Shown here one piece after another: positions 6,167 to 64,000 of a stretch of DNA of 64,000 bases (positions are counted from its first letter, which is position 1; each line of letters opens with the position of its first letter). Where the stretch lies: the NCBI GenBank assembly GCA_049317645.1, contig JBMOHV010000001.1:975-64974 (forward strand). The letters run 5' to 3'. The stretch is from Bacteroidia bacterium (GTDB taxonomy: Bacteria > Bacteroidota > Bacteroidia > UBA7662). The translations under genes were made by a program, and so were the position numbers. The notes beneath the pieces were generated by a model, which was not told where the DNA came from, did no database searches, and was given only the letters and a program-made list of their open reading frames with translations.

Positions 6167-7051
6167 ATGCGCGCCTATCTCTTTCCTGGACAAGGATCCC
6201 AATACCCCGGCATGGGCCGCGATTTGCTGGCCCTGGATCCCTTGGCCGAAACCCGTTTGGATCAGGCCTCCGAAATCCTGGGCTATTCCATCAAAAGCCT
6301 CCTTTGCGATGGCAGCGAAGAAGATCTCAAAGCCACCAAGGTGACCCAGCCGGCCGTTTTCTTGTACTCCGTGATTTGGGCCGAAATCCTGGGGGAACGC
6401 TTTGAGCCATCGATGGTCGCCGGGCATTCCTTGGGAGAATTTTCGGCCTTGACCGCTGCCGGGGCCCTGGACTTTGGGGACGGATTGCGCCTCGTGGCCC
6501 TGCGGGCCGCGGCCATGCAAAAAGCCTGCGAAGAACAACCTTCGACCATGGCGGCGGTTTTGGGACTGGACGACGAGCGGGTGGTCGAAATTTGTGCCAG
6601 CGTCCATTCCGAAAGGGTGGTGGCCGCTAATTTTAATTGCCCCGGTCAGGTGGTTATCTCCGGAGGACCCGTTGGCGTCCACGAAGCCGGTCAAAAAGCC
6701 ATCGAAGCCGGAGCCCTCAAAGTCGTCCCCTTGCAGGTCGGCGGAGCCTTCCATTCGCCCTATATGGCAAGCGCCGCCCAAGCCTTGGAAACCGCCTTGG
6801 CGGCCACCACACTGCGCGCACCACGCTGCCCCGTTTACCAAAACATAGCCCCCAACGAAGGCCGAATCGATCCCGAGAAAATACGGGAAGGCCTCAACCT
6901 TCAGTTAACCGGTGCCGTGCAATGGACGCAGGGCGTGCGGGCGATGATTCGTGACGGGGCCACCGAATTCAGCGAACTGGGACCCGGCAAAGTTTTGCAA
7001 GGCCTTATGCGCAAGATTGATCGGCAGGCCGCTGTGGTAGCGGTTCTTTGA
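6167..7051 (+). CDS. fabD: Malonyl CoA-acyl carrier protein transacylase
   Basis: LFPGQGSQYPGMG and GHSLGEF active-site motifs. 294 aa. Confidence 0.9.
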   Translation: MRAYLFPGQGSQYPGMGRDLLALDPLAETRLDQASEILGYSIKSLLCDGSEEDLKATKVTQPAVFLYSVIWAEILGERFEPSMVAGHSLGEFSALTAAGALDFGDGLRLVALRAAAMQKACEEQPSTMAAVLGLDDERVVEICASVHSERVVAANFNCPGQVVISGGPVGVHEAGQKAIEAGALKVVPLQVGGAFHSPYMASAAQALETALAATTLRAPRCPVYQNIAPNEGRIDPEKIREGLNLQLTGAVQWTQGVRAMIRDGATEFSELGPGKVLQGLMRKIDRQAAVVAVL

Positions 7052-7829
7052 TAACCCGCAGCATGCGGGGTTTGCCTTGCATATCCCTGCGGATTTGGGC
7101 CTGACAACCTGGCCATAACAACAAACATTCCTCGGCATAACGCGGGTTGAGCTCCAGCCAAAAAGAACGGGCCACCGGATCTTTCAAAAAATGTTCTGCC
7201 AATGCGCGGTACACATCCAGCGGGTCCGGACACTGGGCAAATAGAGCCGTAGAAGGCTCGTAGTCAAGGACATGTTTCTCCATTTGGGCGGCTTCATCCA
7301 GACCGATGTAGGGTGGATTGCTGATCCATAAAGCCGCCGAGGGCGGCACCCAGGCCTTGTCCATAAAGTCAGCCTGCAGGCCAACAAAACTCGACTCCAA
7401 GCCCCAGGCTACGGCATTCTTTCGGGCGGTTTTCAACGCCTCCGCCGAAACATCCACCCCGTAAACCGGACGGCAGCCTCCCTTCCAAGCCAGAGCCAGG
7501 GCCAGGCAACCGCTCCCCGTTCCCAAGTCCAAAAAAGCCTCCGTGTGGTTCTCCTTCTCTTCGAGTACCCAGGCCACCAATTCTTCGGATTCAGGCCTTG
7601 GAATGAGAACCGAGCCGTCGACCTCCAGGGTTCTTCCCATAAACCAGGCCTTGCGCAGCACATATTGAACCGGCTCCCCGGATACAAGGCGGTTCCACTG
7701 GACTTCGTCCGGATCATGCGAAGATTCTTCCATCCAAAAGCGACGCATCGCGGCCAATTCCCCGGAAGGGTAACGATCGCCTAAACGGCGCTTCCATTCC
7801 TCCATTGTCGCCGTTCCGCTTGGATTCAT
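7005..7829 (-). CDS. prmC: Release factor glutamine N5-methyltransferase (HemK/PrmC)
   Basis: LDLGTGSGCLALALA SAM-binding motif and NPPY motif (ISNPPYIGLDE). Convergent with fabD, overlapping its 3' end. Confidence 0.8.
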   Translation of the reverse strand: MNPSGTATMEEWKRRLGDRYPSGELAAMRRFWMEESSHDPDEVQWNRLVSGEPVQYVLRKAWFMGRTLEVDGSVLIPRPESEELVAWVLEEKENHTEAFLDLGTGSGCLALALAWKGGCRPVYGVDVSAEALKTARKNAVAWGLESSFVGLQADFMDKAWVPPSAALWISNPPYIGLDEAAQMEKHVLDYEPSTALFAQCPDPLDVYRALAEHFLKDPVARSFWLELNPRYAEECLLLWPGCQAQIRRDMQGKPRMLRVIKEPLPQRPADQSCA

Positions 7830-7871
7830 TGTGCAGGCAAGTTAGGCAGAAGAACTAATTTTGGCGATACC

Positions 7872-9008
7872 ATGATGCTCCCCCCTCTGCCATCGGACTG
7901 GCCATTTATTCGTCGCTGTTTGGAATTGGCCGTAGCCCCCGGATCGGGGGTCTCTCCCAACCCCTTGGTAGCTGCCTTGATTACGTTGGACCACCGGGTC
8001 GTTGCGGAGGGTTTTCACCAGTCCTGCGGCTTGGCCCATGCCGAAATTAATGCGCTTAAGGCCTGGAAGTCCTACCTCCAAGATCACCCACTCGGTGAAG
8101 GAGCTGCTGCGGCCGCCACGCTCTTTATCAGCCTGGAACCCTGCAATCATCAAGGCCGAACCCCGCCCTGCACGGAGGCCATCCTTGCATCTGGAATTGG
8201 AACGGTGGTCTTCGCCTGCACCGATCCCCATCCCTTGGTCCAGGGCCGAGGTTTGGAACGACTTCGAACCGCCGGCCTGCAGGTCCGCGGTCCCGTTCTG
8301 GAAAAAGAAGCCCGCTGGATGAACCGACGCTTCGAAACCATGGTGCACCAAAATCGACCCTATACCGTACTCAAATGGGCTCGAACCGCGGACGGGTACC
8401 TTGACCAAGGAGAAAACGGGCCCGGGCCTCGCATCAGCGGACCCCAGGCCCAGCGTTGGGTCCATCGCCTCCGCAGGGAACAAGCCGCCTTGTTGGTGGG
8501 CGCCCGCACCCTCCTCCTTGACAACCCCCTTCTGGATGCCCGTTTGGCGGGTCCGCCCCATCCGCGCATCGCCGTTGCCGGGGATTCCCGACCCTGGCCA
8601 TTGAACCTTCAGGTATTTCAACGAAATCCCCAACCCCTCCGTTTGCCCTGGCCAACGGACGACTCGTCTGATTCGGGACCAACAAGAAGCCACCTGGGAC
8701 TCAAATCCTGGCATAAGACCCTTCTGGAGGAGGGACTGAATTCCGTGTTGGTCGAGGGTGGCGCCAAAACCCTGGAGCTTTTCCTTCAAGAAGGCTGTTG
8801 GGACGAAATTCATGTCATCGAAAACCCCCACATGCACACCGGAAAGGGGACGCCCGCTCCCGCTGAGCCCCAGACCCCCCTCTTCAGTGGAAACCTAGGC
8901 ACGGACCTTTACCGGGTCTATCTGCACCCCGCTTGGGTCCCTGGAAAAAATGCCCCCGACCTGGATTATCTTCGCGACCACTTTAGCCCTCAACTCTCCC
9001 CATCATGA
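7872..9008 (+). CDS. ribD: Bifunctional riboflavin biosynthesis protein RibD (pyrimidine deaminase/reductase)
   Basis: HAEINAL and PCNHQGRTPPC deaminase zinc motifs, followed by a RibD reductase-like C-terminal domain. 378 aa. Confidence 0.9.
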   Translation: MMLPPLPSDWPFIRRCLELAVAPGSGVSPNPLVAALITLDHRVVAEGFHQSCGLAHAEINALKAWKSYLQDHPLGEGAAAAATLFISLEPCNHQGRTPPCTEAILASGIGTVVFACTDPHPLVQGRGLERLRTAGLQVRGPVLEKEARWMNRRFETMVHQNRPYTVLKWARTADGYLDQGENGPGPRISGPQAQRWVHRLRREQAALLVGARTLLLDNPLLDARLAGPPHPRIAVAGDSRPWPLNLQVFQRNPQPLRLPWPTDDSSDSGPTRSHLGLKSWHKTLLEEGLNSVLVEGGAKTLELFLQEGCWDEIHVIENPHMHTGKGTPAPAEPQTPLFSGNLGTDLYRVYLHPAWVPGKNAPDLDYLRDHFSPQLSPS

Positions 9009-9700
9009 ATCACAAAATCCTCCATGCCGTCCTTTTGGCCACCGGGCTCTGGACTGTATCCTGCAATGCCCAAAACAACAAAATGAAAAAAGAAGACCTC
9101 AAAACCGAATTGGACAGCGTATCCTATGGTTTGGGCGTAAACATCGCCTCGAACATCAAAACCCAGGGAATTAAGGACTTGAACCTCCAGGCCATGATGA
9201 AAGGCATGGAACATATTTTGGCAGGTGACAGCCCCTGGATGGGTGATCAGGAAGCCATGATGGCCATTCAAGCCTATTTCACAAAAATCTCCGAAGCCAA
9301 GGGCGCCGAAAGCAAGAAAGAAGGCGAAGCCTACCTGGCCGAAAACGCCAAGAAAAAAGGGATCACAACCACCGCGAGCGGTCTGCAGTACGAAGTCGTC
9401 AAGATGGGCGACGGAGCCAAGCCCCTCGCGACCGACGAAGTCACCGTTCATTACCACGGAACCACCACCAAAGGGGAAGTATTTGATTCCTCCAAGGACC
9501 GCGGCGAACCCGCCACCTTCCCCCTCAACGGCGTGATCGCTGGCTGGACCGAAGGCCTGCAGCTCATGCCCAAAGGCTCCATCTTCAAGCTCTACCTGCC
9601 CAGCAATCTGGCCTACGGAGAGCGTGGTGCTGGCGAAAAAATCCCACCGCATGCTGTGCTGATTTTTGAAGTCGAATTGCTCGACATCAAGAATAAGTAA
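9005..9700 (+). CDS. FKBP-type peptidyl-prolyl cis-trans isomerase, probable lipoprotein (FkpA/Mip-like)
   Basis: Signal peptide with a Cys (LWTVSC). FKBP_N-like dimerisation region, then an FKBP domain (GQVIKGWTEGLQLM, LAYGERG, VLIFEVELLD). ATG overlaps the ribD stop (ATGA). Confidence 0.85.
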   Translation: MNHKILHAVLLATGLWTVSCNAQNNKMKKEDLKTELDSVSYGLGVNIASNIKTQGIKDLNLQAMMKGMEHILAGDSPWMGDQEAMMAIQAYFTKISEAKGAESKKEGEAYLAENAKKKGITTTASGLQYEVVKMGDGAKPLATDEVTVHYHGTTTKGEVFDSSKDRGEPATFPLNGVIAGWTEGLQLMPKGSIFKLYLPSNLAYGERGAGEKIPPHAVLIFEVELLDIKNK

Positions 9701-9725
9701 GCTGTACACCGGGACCCCTATCCCG

Positions 9726-9771
9726 ATCGAGCACCCATGGTGATCGAAATCGAGCACCCATGGTGATCGAA
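9726..9771. repeat. Perfect 23-bp tandem duplication (ATCGAGCACCCATGGTGATCGAA x2) covering the rlmH start codon
   Basis: Unit 1 at 9726-9748 and unit 2 at 9749-9771 are identical. Each contains an ATG (9737 and 9760). The first gives a 9-codon uORF, MVIEIEHPW, whose TGA overlaps the rlmH ATG. Confidence 0.9.
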
Positions 9772-10227
9772 CTTTTGTTGATTGGGAAAATTCGTGAAAC
9801 CTATGTGGTGAACGGATGCGAACATTTTCATGAACGCCTGCGGCATTATTGCCGGCTGACTGTTACGGAATTGGCCATCAAAGAACAAGGCCTTTCCCCG
9901 GAGGATCAAAAGTCAGCCGAGAATCGCTTGATTTTTAGCAAGTTAAAGCCACGCCACGCGCTGGTTGTCCTGGACGAACGGGGCCAATCGGTGAGCAGTC
10001 CGGGCCTGGCGGGGCAACTCGAAAAATGGGGCAATGCCGGAACGGACCGCGTTCAATTTGTGGTCGGCGGTGCCTACGGAGTTCAGGATGAATTACGTCG
10101 CAAGGCCGACTGGATTTGGTCCCTTTCTCCCCTTACCTTTCCGCATCCCTTGGTACGTCTGATTTTGATGGAACAATTGTACCGAGGGTTCAGCATTCTA
10201 CATCACCAACCCTATCATCATGGATAA
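9760..10227 (+). CDS. rlmH: 23S rRNA (pseudouridine1915-N3)-methyltransferase RlmH (SPOUT family)
   Basis: 155 aa and colinear with E. coli RlmH: ...VVLDERGQ..., FVVGGAYGV, WSLSPLTFPHPLVRLILMEQLYRGFSILHHQPYHH. Confidence 0.85.
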   Translation: MVIELLLIGKIRETYVVNGCEHFHERLRHYCRLTVTELAIKEQGLSPEDQKSAENRLIFSKLKPRHALVVLDERGQSVSSPGLAGQLEKWGNAGTDRVQFVVGGAYGVQDELRRKADWIWSLSPLTFPHPLVRLILMEQLYRGFSILHHQPYHHG

Positions 10228-58885: not shown

Positions 58886-59737
58886 ATGGACGAAGATTAC
58901 GAAAAACCCTACGTCCCCCTTTGGACGGCCCAAGAGGCTCGAGCCTTGGTGATTAACAACGCCTGCCTTGGTATCATTGGGTTTTATCTCGTACGAATTC
59001 CCCTTATTCTACTTTCTTATCTTTTGGCCCAGCTTGAAGGCTTAAGGCCCGAACTTCATTATTACGGCCTGGTAATTGACAAAATTTCCAATGACTCGGT
59101 TATCCAGGGAGCTGGTTGGTCCGGCGGATCCACCATAGGGGCGTATTTCATTGGCCCCCTCGTATTTGCTTTTGCTGCCATCTACCTATTGCAGCGTTGG
59201 GAGTATTTGTGGTTGAACGGGATATCACTTGGATTGATCATTTGGACCAGCTTGCACGGCTTTAGCCGTTTGTTATGCGGTGCCGTGGCCGGCATTTTTA
59301 TTCCCAAATATGTGGGGCAGGTCTTTGTCGCTACCGGAATCAGTCTGGGCGTTCGGGTTTTGTTAGGGATTGCGGCCTTTGGCATCTTTCTAGCGGTGGC
59401 CCGTTTCTTCCTACCCCCTCTTTTGTTCAACGGACGCGAACAAAGGGTGGCCGAAGACGAAGGTTCTCGGGGTGAATTTGTGCGATACACCCTCTTTCTT
59501 CCCTGGCTTTTGAGTTCCTCCTTCATCGCTCTCATTCACGGGATTCGGGGCCATTATTACGAAGTCATCATACAATTTTTGTTAGGTCTGGTGGTTCTGC
59601 ATATTTACCATCAGTTCCGCCCCCAAAAACCCGAATACAATGTACCCATCCCCGAACAAGGTCGACCTCGTGTTGATTTCCGGCTTTGGGTTGCGACTGC
59701 ATTGGTCTTTCTTTTGATTTTTATCTTGTTTTTTTAA
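58886..59737 (+). CDS. Hypothetical polytopic membrane protein
   Basis: 283 aa with at least 7 predicted TM helices and no motif. Its local GC is lower than that of its neighbours. Confidence 0.4.
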   Translation: MDEDYEKPYVPLWTAQEARALVINNACLGIIGFYLVRIPLILLSYLLAQLEGLRPELHYYGLVIDKISNDSVIQGAGWSGGSTIGAYFIGPLVFAFAAIYLLQRWEYLWLNGISLGLIIWTSLHGFSRLLCGAVAGIFIPKYVGQVFVATGISLGVRVLLGIAAFGIFLAVARFFLPPLLFNGREQRVAEDEGSRGEFVRYTLFLPWLLSSSFIALIHGIRGHYYEVIIQFLLGLVVLHIYHQFRPQKPEYNVPIPEQGRPRVDFRLWVATALVFLLIFILFF

Positions 59738-59815
59738 CCAGCTCTTCGCCTACCACCCTTTTTTCGTTCACCCTTTTACCTGATTCGATTTCATCCTGTC
59801 CCTCGCGATTTACCT

Positions 59816-60112
59816 ATGACCACCCAGCCCCTAGAATCCATACGCTCTGGAACCTTTGCCCTGATTGATGTTCGCACCACCGACGAATTTCAACAAGACC
59901 ATATCGAAGGCAGCATCCATATTCCCCACCAAGAAATCCTGGACCACAGCGAACGCATCGCCCAATTGCCAGAACCTCGCTTCCTCTATTGCCGCAGCGG
60001 AGCCCGCAGTGCCTTGGCCATGCAAATGCTTCAACAATGCGGAGTTACCGAGCTTTTTAATGCAGGAGGCATCGAAGATATGCGGGAATTGTTGCGGGAC
60101 GCTGCCCTTTAA
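59816..60112 (+). CDS. Rhodanese-like single-domain sulfurtransferase
   Basis: 98 aa; active-site loop YCRSGARS (Cys). Confidence 0.7.
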   Translation: MTTQPLESIRSGTFALIDVRTTDEFQQDHIEGSIHIPHQEILDHSERIAQLPEPRFLYCRSGARSALAMQMLQQCGVTELFNAGGIEDMRELLRDAAL

Positions 60113-61380
60113 CCCAAGCCGCCGGCCCATCGAAGGGCCTTGTTTCCAAATCGCTCCTTGAGGCGATCCAAGGTCTTGTGCAGGGCATCTTCCTCGGTAG
60201 GATCCCCGAACAAATCCAGCTGAGCCCCCACCCTGCTCAATTCACTCAGGCGCAGGCCCACCAAACGAACCCGCATTCGCCGGGTGTACAGGCGTTCAAA
60301 CAAGGTACAGGCGCTGTCCATCAGCACCCGGTCCGATGCCGTGTAAGGGATCTTTTGTTGCCTGCTGACCGTCTCAAAATCGGCGTAACGCAGGCGAATC
60401 GTCAGGCATCCGCAAACCAAACCCTGCGAACGCAGCTCGTGACCCAGGCCTTCAGCGAGGGAGCGGAGCTTGGTTTTGAGGAAGGAAGGATCGGCGCTAT
60501 CCTGATCAAAGGTTCGTTCGGCCGAGATAGACTTTTGTTCGCGGTAAGGGAGAATCGGCTGATGATCCACCCCCCTGGCTTTCTCCCAAAGCGTCACACC
60601 GTTCTTTCCAAAAAGCCGAACCAGGTACTCGCAGGGAACTTCTTGCAATTGATGAATCCGGCCCAAACCCAGCTCTTCCAACTGAGAGGACCAAACAGGG
60701 CCCACCATCGGGATTTTTCGGACCGGGAGCGGAGCCAAAAACCGAGCCTCGTCCCCGTTCCTAACACAATATTGGTTATCCGGCTTGGCCTGACCGGTCG
60801 CCACCTTGGAAACAGTTTTGTTCACCGAAAGACCCAACGAAGAAGGAAGCCCTGTTTCGCGGGTGATGCGGCTGCGCAGCTCCGAAGCCAAGCGCAGACA
60901 ACCCAGATACTTATCCATTCCACTCAAATCAGCGTAAAATTCATCCACCGAAGCCTTCTCTACGACGGGCAATGTCTCCTGAATCAACGCGGTAACCATC
61001 CGGCTGTATTCCCCGTATTGCTCGGAATGGCCGCGTACCAAAACAGCCTCGGGGCATAACCTCAACGCCATCCGAACGGGCATCCCCGACGAAACCCCCA
61101 TGGACCGTGCTTCGTAACTGCAGGACGAAACCACCGCCCGGTCACCGCCTCCCCCAATAATCAGAGGTTGGCCCCTCAATCGACCGTCCAAGAGTCGCTC
61201 GACCGACACAAAAAACGTATCCAGATCCAAATGCAAAACACAACGTGTTCCTTCAAAGGCCCTGGATTCGTCCCCAAAAAAGAAACCGGGCTCAGGCGGC
61301 AAAGGAGGCAGATTCAAGAGAGACATACGCCCGCTTGTGCATGGATGAAACTTCGACAAAACGATAATCGTACTCTTCAC
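60109..61380 (-). CDS. dinB: Y-family DNA polymerase (DinB/Pol IV-like) with intact catalytic residues
   Basis: HLDLDTFFVSVE (motif I, D-x-D) and SVDEFYADLS (motif III, DE). Little-finger domain and C-terminal ...LDRLKERFG. An alternative start at 61326 is possible. Overlaps the 3' end of dnaE2. Confidence 0.75.
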   Translation of the reverse strand: MKSTIIVLSKFHPCTSGRMSLLNLPPLPPEPGFFFGDESRAFEGTRCVLHLDLDTFFVSVERLLDGRLRGQPLIIGGGGDRAVVSSCSYEARSMGVSSGMPVRMALRLCPEAVLVRGHSEQYGEYSRMVTALIQETLPVVEKASVDEFYADLSGMDKYLGCLRLASELRSRITRETGLPSSLGLSVNKTVSKVATGQAKPDNQYCVRNGDEARFLAPLPVRKIPMVGPVWSSQLEELGLGRIHQLQEVPCEYLVRLFGKNGVTLWEKARGVDHQPILPYREQKSISAERTFDQDSADPSFLKTKLRSLAEGLGHELRSQGLVCGCLTIRLRYADFETVSRQQKIPYTASDRVLMDSACTLFERLYTRRMRVRLVGLRLSELSRVGAQLDLFGDPTEEDALHKTLDRLKERFGNKALRWAGGLG

Positions 61381-64000
61381 GAAGGATACCGCTCAATCGG
61401 TAAATCCCCCGACCCTTCCAAGGCCATGACTTCCACTGAGGCGGAAAATGCACCGTATCCACCCAAGAACCCGACGGATCCCTCCAGGTCCCGAAAGCCA
61501 TCCGCTCACCCCGAACCGTACGCACAGTCCGAATATGCACCGTATACAGATCCAGGCTCACCACGGTCCCCGTCGGTATCGTCGCATCCCAAGCCAGGGG
61601 GGAACCGTAACCGGACCGGTCGACCAAATCAAAGGGAGAAACCAGCGGAAAACCCAGCAATTCCATTTCGTCGTACGCCTGACGAATCCGATCCAACGGC
61701 AGCAAACCGACCCCATCAACCGAACCTTGGACCGCTGAGGGTAACACAAAAGGTTGAAGGGGCTCCGCTTCGAACAAAACCGAAGACACCGATCCGGAAC
61801 GAGAACCCTGAACCCCGCTGCTATAAAACAAACGCAGAGCCCACAGAGCCAAGGATCGCGTAGGCTGCAAGCAACGCAACGCCCCAACCCTCCATAACAA
61901 AAGAGACTGCTCCAAACCCAGCCCCGAACGCCGGCAGAAATCTTCGACACTGTGGTACAGTCCACCGCTGCTTCGAGCCTTGAGAAGGCCCTGAACACTG
62001 CGTTCTTCCAACCCGCGAATCCAAGCCAAACCCAAACGCAAGCAAGAACCCTCCAGCGAAACAACGGCCGTGCTGTATTGAACACAGGGCCCCTCCACCA
62101 CGGCCCCCAAACGTCGGGCCTCCTCCAAATACTCTTCGGCGCTGTAAAATCCGCCACCGTTGTTCAATACCGCCACCATATAAGCCAAGGGGGCATACGC
62201 CTTCAGATAAAGGCATTGATAACTTTCGACCGCGTACGACGCCGAATGACCCTTGGCAAAAGCATAGCCGGCAAAACCGGCCATCTGCCTCCAAAGCTCA
62301 CGGGCCAAAACCTCCCCGTGCCCCAACCCCACGGCCCCGGACACAAAACGTTGCTCCAAATCCTGCAGTTCGGTCAAACCCCGGTGCTTGCCACTCATGG
62401 AACGCCTCAAGACATCGGCCTCGGCCAAATTCAAACCACCCAAAACATGCGCCACCCGGATAACATCTTCCTGGTAAACCATCACCCCGTGGGTTTCCGG
62501 TAACAAATTCCGTAGCGCTTCCGGTGCATCCAAACGCAGTTCAGGGCAACGCTCCCTTTCGATATAAACCCGCATCATACCCGATGAGGATACCCCCGGT
62601 CGAATGACCGAACTCGCCGCCACCAAACCCAGGTAATTATGAACCCGTAATTTGGTTAATAACATGCGCATCGCCGGGGATTCAATATAAAAACACCCCA
62701 CGCTCTTGCTTTGCTCCAGCAAAGAACGAACCCTTGCATTGCGCTTCAGGCGATGGATATCCCTCAAAATGCGAGTCAGCCCCTCGCTCCGAACCGGCCC
62801 CATCATCCCCAAAGTGTCTTTGATTTTGGCCAAACCCCGCTGGCTGAGCAAATCAAATTTGTGAAACCCCAGATCCTCGGCCGAATGCATGTCCAGCAGA
62901 GCCGTAGGAAACCCTTTGGGAGGAAAAAAGCAAGCCGTGTACCGTTCCACCGGAAAATCCGTAATCAGTACACCGCCGGCATGAATGCTATGATGGGAAG
63001 GCATCCCCTGCATCCGGTCGGCATAATGCAAAACCAAACGCCCCGTACGATCCAGCACCCCGCGATCCGCACCCCGCATACCTGCCAAAGCTTCGATCTC
63101 ATCACCGGGAAGGCCAAAGACCTTGCCCAATTCACGGACCGCCGAACGATGCTGATAACAAACATGCGTTCCCAAAAGAGCCACGTGGGGGAATCGACGA
63201 AAAACATATTGCAACACCGCATCCCGATCTTGCCACGAAAAATCCAAATCAAAATCGGGAGGGTTGCGTCGATACAGGTTAATAAACCGCTCAAAAAACA
63301 AATCCAATTCCAACGGATCCACGTCCGTAATAAAAAGCAAGTACGCCACCAAGCTGTTGGCCCCGCTTCCCCGACCCACATAAAAAAATCCCGATTCCCT
63401 GGCAAATTTGAGGATCTTCCAATTGATCAAAAAATAAGCTACATAGCGCTTTTGTCGTATGATCATCAATTCTTTTTCCAAACGCTGTTGCAATTCAGCT
63501 GGAGGATTTGCATACCGATGCCTGATCCCGGAACGAGCCAGAAAACACAAAAAGCGATAATCCATTTCCTCGTTGCCGGTGTACTTCGAAAGGTTTTTGT
63601 GTGGAAAAGACGAACCGATTTCAAAATAGATGCGGCATTCATCCAGCAGCCTCGTCGTTCGGTAGAGTAGTTCTGGACACGAATTGAATCGTTCGAAAAC
63701 AAGAACGGAAGACTCCAAAAGATCCCCGGAAGAAGCCTGATCGTAGGTGGAATCCAGATTTGATAACAACAAATTGTGATGAATCGCCCGCAGCAAACGA
63801 TGCAGAGCGCGATCCTCCGCCCGCAACAAGGTCGCTGTCTCCATGGCCAGCATCTTGTTCCAAGTCACCCACGATGACAAGTCCCCAAAACGATGCAGAT
63901 CCCTGGACGACAAGCCCACCCATTCCCCTTCCCGAAGGCGGTGTCCCGGACCCCGGGGGCCTTCGTAAATCACCCAGAGATCGGGGTGGGGTTCAGCAGG
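61292..64000 (-). CDS. dnaE2: Error-prone DNA polymerase DnaE2 (ImuC), 5'-truncated by the window edge
   Basis: Pol III alpha palm/fingers (...GRGSGANSLVAYLLFITDVDPL..., FDLDF), HhH and OB fold. It ends about 100 aa after the OB domain, i.e. it has no tau-binding tail. The PHP domain lies beyond coordinate 64000. Confidence 0.8.
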   Translation of the reverse strand, partial: PAEPHPDLWVIYEGPRGPGHRLREGEWVGLSSRDLHRFGDLSSWVTWNKMLAMETATLLRAEDRALHRLLRAIHHNLLLSNLDSTYDQASSGDLLESSVLVFERFNSCPELLYRTTRLLDECRIYFEIGSSFPHKNLSKYTGNEEMDYRFLCFLARSGIRHRYANPPAELQQRLEKELMIIRQKRYVAYFLINWKILKFARESGFFYVGRGSGANSLVAYLLFITDVDPLELDLFFERFINLYRRNPPDFDLDFSWQDRDAVLQYVFRRFPHVALLGTHVCYQHRSAVRELGKVFGLPGDEIEALAGMRGADRGVLDRTGRLVLHYADRMQGMPSHHSIHAGGVLITDFPVERYTACFFPPKGFPTALLDMHSAEDLGFHKFDLLSQRGLAKIKDTLGMMGPVRSEGLTRILRDIHRLKRNARVRSLLEQSKSVGCFYIESPAMRMLLTKLRVHNYLGLVAASSVIRPGVSSSGMMRVYIERERCPELRLDAPEALRNLLPETHGVMVYQEDVIRVAHVLGGLNLAEADVLRRSMSGKHRGLTELQDLEQRFVSGAVGLGHGEVLARELWRQMAGFAGYAFAKGHSASYAVESYQCLYLKAYAPLAYMVAVLNNGGGFYSAEEYLEEARRLGAVVEGPCVQYSTAVVSLEGSCLRLGLAWIRGLEERSVQGLLKARSSGGLYHSVEDFCRRSGLGLEQSLLLWRVGALRCLQPTRSLALWALRLFYSSGVQGSRSGSVSSVLFEAEPLQPFVLPSAVQGSVDGVGLLPLDRIRQAYDEMELLGFPLVSPFDLVDRSGYGSPLAWDATIPTGTVVSLDLYTVHIRTVRTVRGERMAFGTWRDPSGSWVDTVHFPPQWKSWPWKGRGIYRLSGILREEYDYRFVEVSSMHKRAYVSLESASFAA

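Follow-up and report, generated by a model that had tools for sequence, protein, structure and literature searches.

A predicted lexA-dnaE2-polY operon of the DnaE2B-PolY type in an uncultured Bacteroidia lineage

A pair of minus-strand open reading frames (ORFs) fills positions 60109-64000 of the 64,000-nucleotide (nt) stretch of Bacteroidia contig JBMOHV010000001.1 analysed here (the window), with dnaE2, encoding a C-family DNA polymerase, upstream and polY, encoding a Y-family polymerase, downstream. The region is probably the 3' two-thirds of a damage-inducible lexA-dnaE2-polY operon belonging to the Bacteroidota DnaE2B-PolY(-RecA) translesion-synthesis system. This system was described in Bacteroidetes as "PolY2 + DnaE2" by Timinskas & Venclovas 2019 (PMC6511836), with Cellulophaga algicola as its representative, and was renamed DnaE2B-PolY-RecA in a 2026 NAR (Nucleic Acids Research) survey, where it is one of 11 predicted multimeric error-prone polymerases with AlphaFold support (PMC12926913). 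Genomes with PolY2 and DnaE2 contain no imuA, and RecA is presumed to bind the RecA N-terminal-like (RecA-NT-like) motif of the Y-family protein (PMC6511836).

The operon and its repressor

The genes of the operon that are visible in the window are arranged as follows.

61292..64000, continuing past the window edge, minus strand: dnaE2, DnaE2B-type C-family polymerase, identified by Pfam and NCBIfam domains
60109..61326, minus strand: polY, DinB-like Y-family polymerase of the Bacteroidota PolY2 type, 405 residues plus stop
61292..61326, minus strand: overlap of the dnaE2 3' end and the polY 5' end, 35 nt, with ATG 61326 as the assumed start

The window holds codons 102-1003 of dnaE2 (902 codons) and its TGA stop at 61292-61294, with no start inside; the first 101 codons (the 5' 303 nt) fall past 64000. 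The identical 405-residue PolY occurs on at least 22 contigs from public metagenomes. Contigs L005 to L008 are 99.2-99.5% identical to the last 13.9 kb of the window, position 64000 corresponding to position 7327 of L005, on which the whole of dnaE2 spans 7024-10035. A repressor gene at L005 6214-7020, with a product of 258-268 residues, ends 3 nt before the start of dnaE2. This product matches the Pfam families HTH_3 (2.7e-16) and Peptidase_S24 (1.7e-07), and its translation holds AAAG/Y, KGDSM and VYKRV, the expected cleavage site and Ser/Lys dyad of a self-cleaving regulator of the LexA/CI type. By its domain architecture the repressor is a non-canonical LexA of the Bacteroidetes type, and non-canonical LexA (HTH_3 + S24) has been shown to run the Bacteroidetes SOS response (Sanchez-Osuna et al. 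2021, PMC8565304). The original prediction, made from the letters of the window alone, had placed any imuA or lexA partner beyond the window edge. A LexA-like partner is indeed found there, and an imuA partner is not, as the source contigs showed no imuA, imuB or RecA-like gene in the 10 kb to each side of polY. The lexA-dnaE2-polY operon and its flanking synteny recur in two more lineages, L001 (87% PolY identity) and L089 (73%), which together with the window are referred to below as the window clade.

The promoter of the repressor gene contains two operator-like boxes, CTAATAAAAATAG and CCAATAAATTTAG, 18 nt apart and ~55-73 nt ahead of the repressor start. These boxes are two of the three such matches in 21 kb and lie adjacent to each other within the promoter. 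A block of ~50 nt holding the boxes is nearly invariant between L005 and L001, with the neighbouring spacer diverged. In L089 the second box is found at the same spacing and the first is degenerate (two mismatches). Repressor homologs of at least 40% identity (L009, L015, L016, L017, L042, L050, L071 and L077) mostly have CTAA-N5-TTAG upstream, with perfect sites in L015 (three), L042, L050 and L077, while three GGA-N5-TCC sites are found with homologs at 27-30% identity. This split between CTAA and GGA sites reproduces the two clusters of regulators and motifs in PMC8565304. SOS-type regulation of the operon, through predicted binding of the repressor to its own promoter region, is in our assessment well supported by inference. 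Scanning the window itself for CTAA-N5-TTAG gave one chance-level match unrelated to the operon; the scan missed the operator because the promoter lies past 64000.

Repressor homologs at 33-37% identity encoded by divergently oriented genes, of which L012, L019, L023, L028, L030, L041 and L043 are examples, had neither CTAA-N5-TTAG (with at most one mismatch) nor GGA-N5-TCC in the ~200 nt upstream of the estimated start. For loci of the L012 type, either the start estimates are off or there is a third operator type.

Compared with the regulon described in PMC8565304, the locus agrees in the domain architecture of the repressor and in the type of operator found in the repressor's own promoter. 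Genes for DinB homologs are there reported to be "often associated with" one for Pol III alpha, the two being arranged as an operon. That dinB-dnaE operon carries mainly GGA-N5-TCC, whereas the putative boxes here are of the CTAA type.

The two minus-strand ORFs lie where the original prediction had put them, and the overlap of 35-89 nt was recovered as well. The open frame of polY extends upstream to GTG 61380, giving 423 residues as the longest ORF and an overlap of 89 nt with dnaE2. The first ATG, at 61326, gives 405 residues and an overlap of 35 nt, and is the start chosen in public gene calls. Gene calls for L001 show the identical 35-nt overlap. In L089 a 13-nt gap replaces the overlap and polY has its own ATG, and the N-terminal extension of PolY is poorly conserved in a 15-sequence alignment. 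The overlap is not conserved within the clade. Translational coupling through it is plausible, and hinges on a putative polY start codon. The open polY frame 89 nt upstream of the dnaE2 stop is also the sole support for programmed frameshifting that would yield a DnaE2-PolY fusion protein. No slippery sequence or stimulatory structure was noticed, no search having been aimed at them, and the unconserved extension speaks against a fusion. We rejected this explanation on the gap and separate ATG of L089, and consider it extremely improbable. A scan of 59700-61600 for sigma-70 promoters and terminators gave none above shuffled controls, with a promoter model unsuited to Bacteroidota.

Downstream, a convergent gene for a rhodanese-domain protein (59816-60112, plus strand) overlaps the polY stop codon (60109-60111, minus strand) by 4 nt. 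Because these convergent genes overlap, there is no intergenic space or obvious terminator between them. Further upstream of the operon lie genes for a tRNA-Arg, a GH16 glycosidase, a rhodopsin-family protein and a secreted esterase/carbohydrate-binding module (CBM) protein. The tRNA-Arg(ACG) gene (L005 5992-6066, minus strand) lies ~80 nt from the operator-like boxes, on their upstream side, and is kept in L001 and L089; the spacer between this gene and the boxes has diverged and the boxes are conserved. The Bac_rhodopsin gene (L005 3077-3850) lies ~3.5 kb past the 64000 edge, near the GH16 glycosidase gene and the esterase/CBM gene, whose product has a Por-secretion tail. This rhodopsin-gene neighbourhood suggests that the host is a light-exposed aquatic member of the Bacteroidia.

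The PolY and DnaE2 polymerases

The motifs on which the assignment of the two proteins rests are listed below, all on the minus strand.

61210..61233: HLDLDTFF, PolY catalytic D34 and D36 and steric-gate F39, aligned to E. coli DinB D8, D10 and F13
60934..60951: SVDEFY, PolY catalytic D128 and E129, aligned to E. coli DinB D103 and E104
60208..60222: QLDLF, match to the canonical beta-clamp-binding consensus directly after the little-finger domain of PolY, read in the sequence
60121..60186: ALHKTLDRLKERFGNKALRWAG, RecA-NT-like (DUF4113-type) motif of PolY, the protein ending 3 residues later
63239..63262: PPDFDLDF, first two catalytic aspartates of DnaE2 (E. coli D401 and D403), PPDFDxDF being invariant in 52 homologs
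62840..62863: HKFDLLSQ, third catalytic aspartate of DnaE2 (E. coli KFDFL, D555), the Asp being invariant in 52 homologs
61772..61786: SSVLF, xLF motif of DnaE2 at the position of the internal beta-clamp motif of E. coli alpha, aligned to 5fku

PolY matches the Pfam families IMS (1.3e-42), IMS_C (1.3e-27) and IMS_HHH_1 (2.6e-08), and it scores above the NCBIfam equivalog cut-off for Pol IV (NF002677, 269.6 bits against 256). Its best match in the PDB is the DNA polymerase IV 7yll (E=1e-63), followed here by E. coli DinB 4ir1 (5.6e-47), both as core-length alignments. Across an alignment of 15 relatives of 51-87% identity the catalytic residues D34, D36, D128 and E129 do not vary, nor do many of the residues around them, and position 39 is always F or Y. 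None of the carboxylate substitutions typical of ImuB were found in PolY, and the ImuB-C beta-barrel is absent. The claim that the Y-family protein is an active Pol IV and not an ImuB therefore holds as far as the sequence can carry it: PolY is supported as a catalytically intact DinB-like polymerase.

QL[SD]LF is a beta-clamp-binding motif, and the QLDLF of PolY, in which Q369, L372 and F373 are invariant in the alignment, probably binds the beta clamp. The pattern ALxxxLDxLKERFGxxALRxxG that follows resembles, by eye, RecA residues ~10-33. The DUF4113 family has been equated with the RecA N-terminal oligomerisation motif, which is described for the PolY2 group of polymerases (PMC6511836).

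The succession of a clamp motif and a RecA-NT-like motif is also that of ImuB (PMC6511836). By this likeness, and by analogy with ImuA-ImuB-DnaE2, PolY could be a pure ImuB-like scaffold tethering DnaE2 to the clamp and to RecA, its own catalysis being irrelevant and the whole functionally a canonical ImuB-DnaE2 mutasome. We consider this unlikely. Inactive Y-family homologs typically diverge fast (PMC6511836), whereas the catalytic carboxylates of PolY and their surroundings are retained across relatives as distant as 51% identity; the Pol IV score and the lack of an ImuB-C domain argue in the same direction.

The visible part of dnaE2 matches Pfam DNA_pol3_alpha (5.8e-56), DNA_pol3_finger and HHH_6, and the full protein of 1003 residues has in addition an N-terminal PHP match. 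DnaE2 aligns with residues 204-1024 of the 1160 residues of E. coli Pol III alpha (chain 5fku was used for the clamp motif). The alignment ends within the OB-fold region, 58 residues short of the end of the query, so that DnaE2 has no tau-binding domain. The metal-binding motif of the PHP domain is degenerate: the N-terminus reads MYLRVHSRFSLGYG, with MYLNxH(T/S)YYSxxYG in relatives, and neither DnaE2 nor its relatives have the two leading His or the Asp of the canonical HxH...D pattern. Degenerate PHP active sites are attributed to DnaE2 polymerases (PMC12926913). The Leu-Phe pair of the xLF motif is kept in 50 of 52 DnaE2 homologs, the other two having Met or Ile for Leu, and SSVLF is accordingly a candidate clamp-binding site. 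After this motif, an insertion of 11-12 residues (SAVQGSVDGVGLLPLD region; window 61650-61771, minus strand; residues ~845-885 in L005 numbering) is seen among the 52 aligned homologs only in the window clade (L001, L005 and L089).

That the upstream polymerase gene encodes replicative Pol III alpha (DnaE1), with polY a housekeeping dinB adjoining it by chance, is very improbable. The nearly equal NCBIfam scores for DnaE1 and DnaE2, given below, are the point in favour of this explanation. Against it stand the length of 1003 residues, the end in the OB-fold region without a tau-binding domain and the degenerate PHP site, as well as the position of the gene 3 nt past an S24 repressor gene with SOS-type boxes and the classification of homologous Bacteroidota genes as DnaE2 or DnaE2B in the literature. 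The conclusion that this gene is not a replicative dnaE1, in line with its naming as dnaE2 in the original prediction, is supported by the predicted architecture. Within the 64-kb window (this scope being the window and not the whole genome) no second dnaE, polY, lexA-like or SRAP (SOS-response-associated peptidase) gene was found.

If the two proteins are read in this way, DNA damage would produce RecA filaments that stimulate self-cleavage of the repressor, for which the Ala-Gly site, the GDSM serine and the VYKRV lysine are present. The operon would then be de-repressed and both polymerases would be made together. PolY would dock on the beta clamp and on RecA at stalled forks, and lesion bypass would be divided between PolY and DnaE2, one inserting and the other extending, or else PolY would serve as an ImuB-like adaptor with its own activity. 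ImuA and ImuB-C would be dispensable in such a scheme.

Gene order and linkage in Bacteroidota

A survey was carried out by scanning one genome per GTDB species with the PolY alignment. The 80 best loci (47-54% PolY identity) were kept, and homologs of DnaE2, the repressor and SRAP were located in them by tblastn. PolY was considered linked when a DnaE2 homolog was present on the same strand within 8 kb. The loci were distributed as follows.

polY then dnaE2, same strand: 42 loci
of the 42, closely adjacent, with matched regions at most 250 nt from each other: 18
of the 42, with a gap of ~0.25-1.4 kb: 20
of the 42, with a larger gap: 4
dnaE2 then polY (the order of the window): 14 loci
DnaE2 absent from both sides over 3.2 kb or more: 14 loci
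contig too short to judge: 10 loci

DnaE2-linked PolY thus occurs in 56 of the 80 loci, or 56 of the 70 that could be assessed, in many families and in either order. In the 14 dnaE2-polY loci most junctions range from -47 to +47 nt, with examples in Winogradskyella, Yeosuana, Lutibacter, Gelidibacter and Psychroserpens. The original prediction had regarded the locus as an unusual, reversed version of the imuA-imuB-dnaE2 cassette. This part does not stand, as the locus belongs with a separate published system without ImuA and ImuB, and the "reversed" order, found in 14 of the 56 linked loci, is a frequent state of the module.

An SRAP-type gene with an N-terminal MCGRY motif fills the space between polY and dnaE2 at 11 of the 20 loci where this measures 0.25-1.4 kb (L009 at 9298-10134, L015, L016, L029, L042, L046, L050, L058, L061, L071 and L077). 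Operons of the form lexA-polY-SRAP-dnaE2 result in some Flavobacteriales and Saprospiraceae.

The arrangement of the repressor sets the window clade apart. In the window, L001 and L089 the repressor gene is co-directional and directly upstream of dnaE2-polY, forming a single three-gene operon, a combination found in none of the 80 surveyed genomes. Where a repressor was found at loci with the dnaE2-polY order (6 of the 14) it is divergent, and surveyed loci with a co-directional repressor have polY first.

The closest named relatives are metagenome-assembled genomes of Bacteroidia. Among homologs in Flavobacteriaceae and Cyclobacteriaceae, identity with the proteins of the window is 49-54% for PolY and 40-47% for DnaE2. 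The published representatives, Belliella baltica AFL82914.1 and Cellulophaga algicola ADV50500.1, were compared through relatives in their families (Cyclobacteriaceae and Flavobacteriaceae), which show 50-53% identity. In common with the PolY2 + DnaE2 system, the window has a PolY with an apparently active site linked to DnaE2, a Bacteroidota host and a locus without ImuA, ImuB or ImuB-C. It differs in uniting the repressor gene, dnaE2 and polY in a single co-directional operon and in having a PolY that lacks the conserved C-terminal sequence GRxNPFNGEPPxLLANR. The canonical imuA-imuB-dnaE2 of Proteobacteria and Actinobacteria is likewise an operon of the SOS type in which a Y-family protein is paired with a C-family polymerase that does not proofread, and its Y-family partner also has clamp-binding and RecA-NT-like motifs. 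However, the window has no imuA, its Y-family protein is intact and without the ImuB-C beta-barrel, the gene order differs, and its DnaE2 is of subgroup B where the canonical one is of subgroup A (PMC12926913). ImuA-less pairings of a Y-family protein with DnaE2 or lexA are also seen in Streptomyces dnaE2-dinB2 and Geobacter lexA-imuB-C-polY (PMC6511836). DinB2 of the former is catalytically inactive, unlike PolY, and the latter has a standalone ImuB-C and no DnaE2.

Several points weigh against assigning the locus to a damage-inducible DnaE2B-PolY system. The boxes CTAATAAAAATAG and CCAATAAATTTAG each have one mismatch to CTAA-N5-TTAG, and a single box of this kind is not above chance. DUF4113 is the sole Pfam family to match the C-terminal peptide of PolY, and its score falls short of the threshold (E=0.0077; 16.7 bits, cut-off 24). 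The NCBIfam models for error-prone DnaE2 (NF004225, 433.7 bits) and for DnaE1 (NF004226, 421.4 bits) have cut-offs that are both far higher (939 and 1002). NCBIfam therefore does not tell the two apart for this protein, and the label DnaE2B is based on its architecture and PHP site, on the context of the gene and on the classification in the literature. PolY occurs without DnaE2 in at least 14 loci, order and spacing vary, and the PolY of the window clade has no tail of the kind that tracks DnaE2 linkage in relatives (see below). Finally, members of the DnaE2B-PolY system have had no experimental characterisation to date (PMC12926913).

Because PolY also occurs without DnaE2 and order and spacing vary, formation of a physical complex by the two polymerases is not guaranteed. 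It is possible, if doubtful, that dnaE2 and polY are two genes of the SOS regulon on one promoter, each product acting alone at the clamp and forming no complex. The flip in order (42 against 14 loci), gaps that range from overlaps to several kb, the 11 loci with an SRAP gene between the polymerase genes, the absence of DnaE2 within 3.2 kb or more of PolY in at least 14 loci and the missing tail in the window clade would all fit such independent action. However, linkage holds in 56 of 70 assessable loci from many families and in either order, the junctions often overlap or measure a few nt, and models from AlphaFold-Multimer and AlphaFold 3 support complexes for all 11 module types, although with no detail for DnaE2B-PolY (PMC12926913).

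The PolY tail and the window clade

Most members of the PolY2 family run ~24 residues past the RecA-NT-like motif and end in a conserved tail, GRxNPFNGEPPxLLA(N/H)R (seen among relatives L009-L088, e.g. L009 7938-9209). PolY of the window clade ends right after the motif and the tail is wholly missing, with nothing of it at 60109-60120. As the stop codon of polY lies within the overlap with the convergent rhodanese gene, no hidden remnant of the tail is present downstream. A regular expression found the full tail in 50 of the 56 DnaE2-linked loci, and L021 is one more in which the tail is effectively full. Among the 14 loci without DnaE2 it is present in 4 (Fisher p~1e-5, a statistic that ignores phylogeny). 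The tail may be a peptide that contacts DnaE2, to which the window clade would be an exception. It is undiscussed in the main texts of both polymerase papers (PMC6511836, PMC12926913).

With its single autoregulated repressor-DnaE2-PolY operon and the loss of the PolY tail, the window clade could represent a distinct sub-variant of DnaE2B-PolY, a suggestion that we make tentatively and hold to be improbable on balance. If it were true, the interface between DnaE2 and PolY would have been rewired, perhaps via the 11-12 residue insertion in DnaE2, or the two polymerases would no longer be complexed. The N-terminal extension of PolY was considered as a replacement for the lost tail and ruled out, as it is unconserved within the clade. 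A loss of the C-terminal 'DPRY' of DnaE2 that would track loss of the PolY tail was also considered and dropped, the pattern being inconsistent across loci.

The locus is an ordinary example of a computationally described two-polymerase module, with minor clade-specific features. Its discovery value is limited, since the Bacteroidota DnaE2-PolY module of two active polymerases has been published before, as has its LexA-like regulator, and the locus adds a further case from an aquatic, uncultured lineage of Bacteroidia that carries a rhodopsin gene. For the family as a whole, the correlation of the tail with DnaE2 linkage is a small lead on how PolY and DnaE2 make contact, and the compact operon with its tail-less PolY could be a natural comparison for such contacts.

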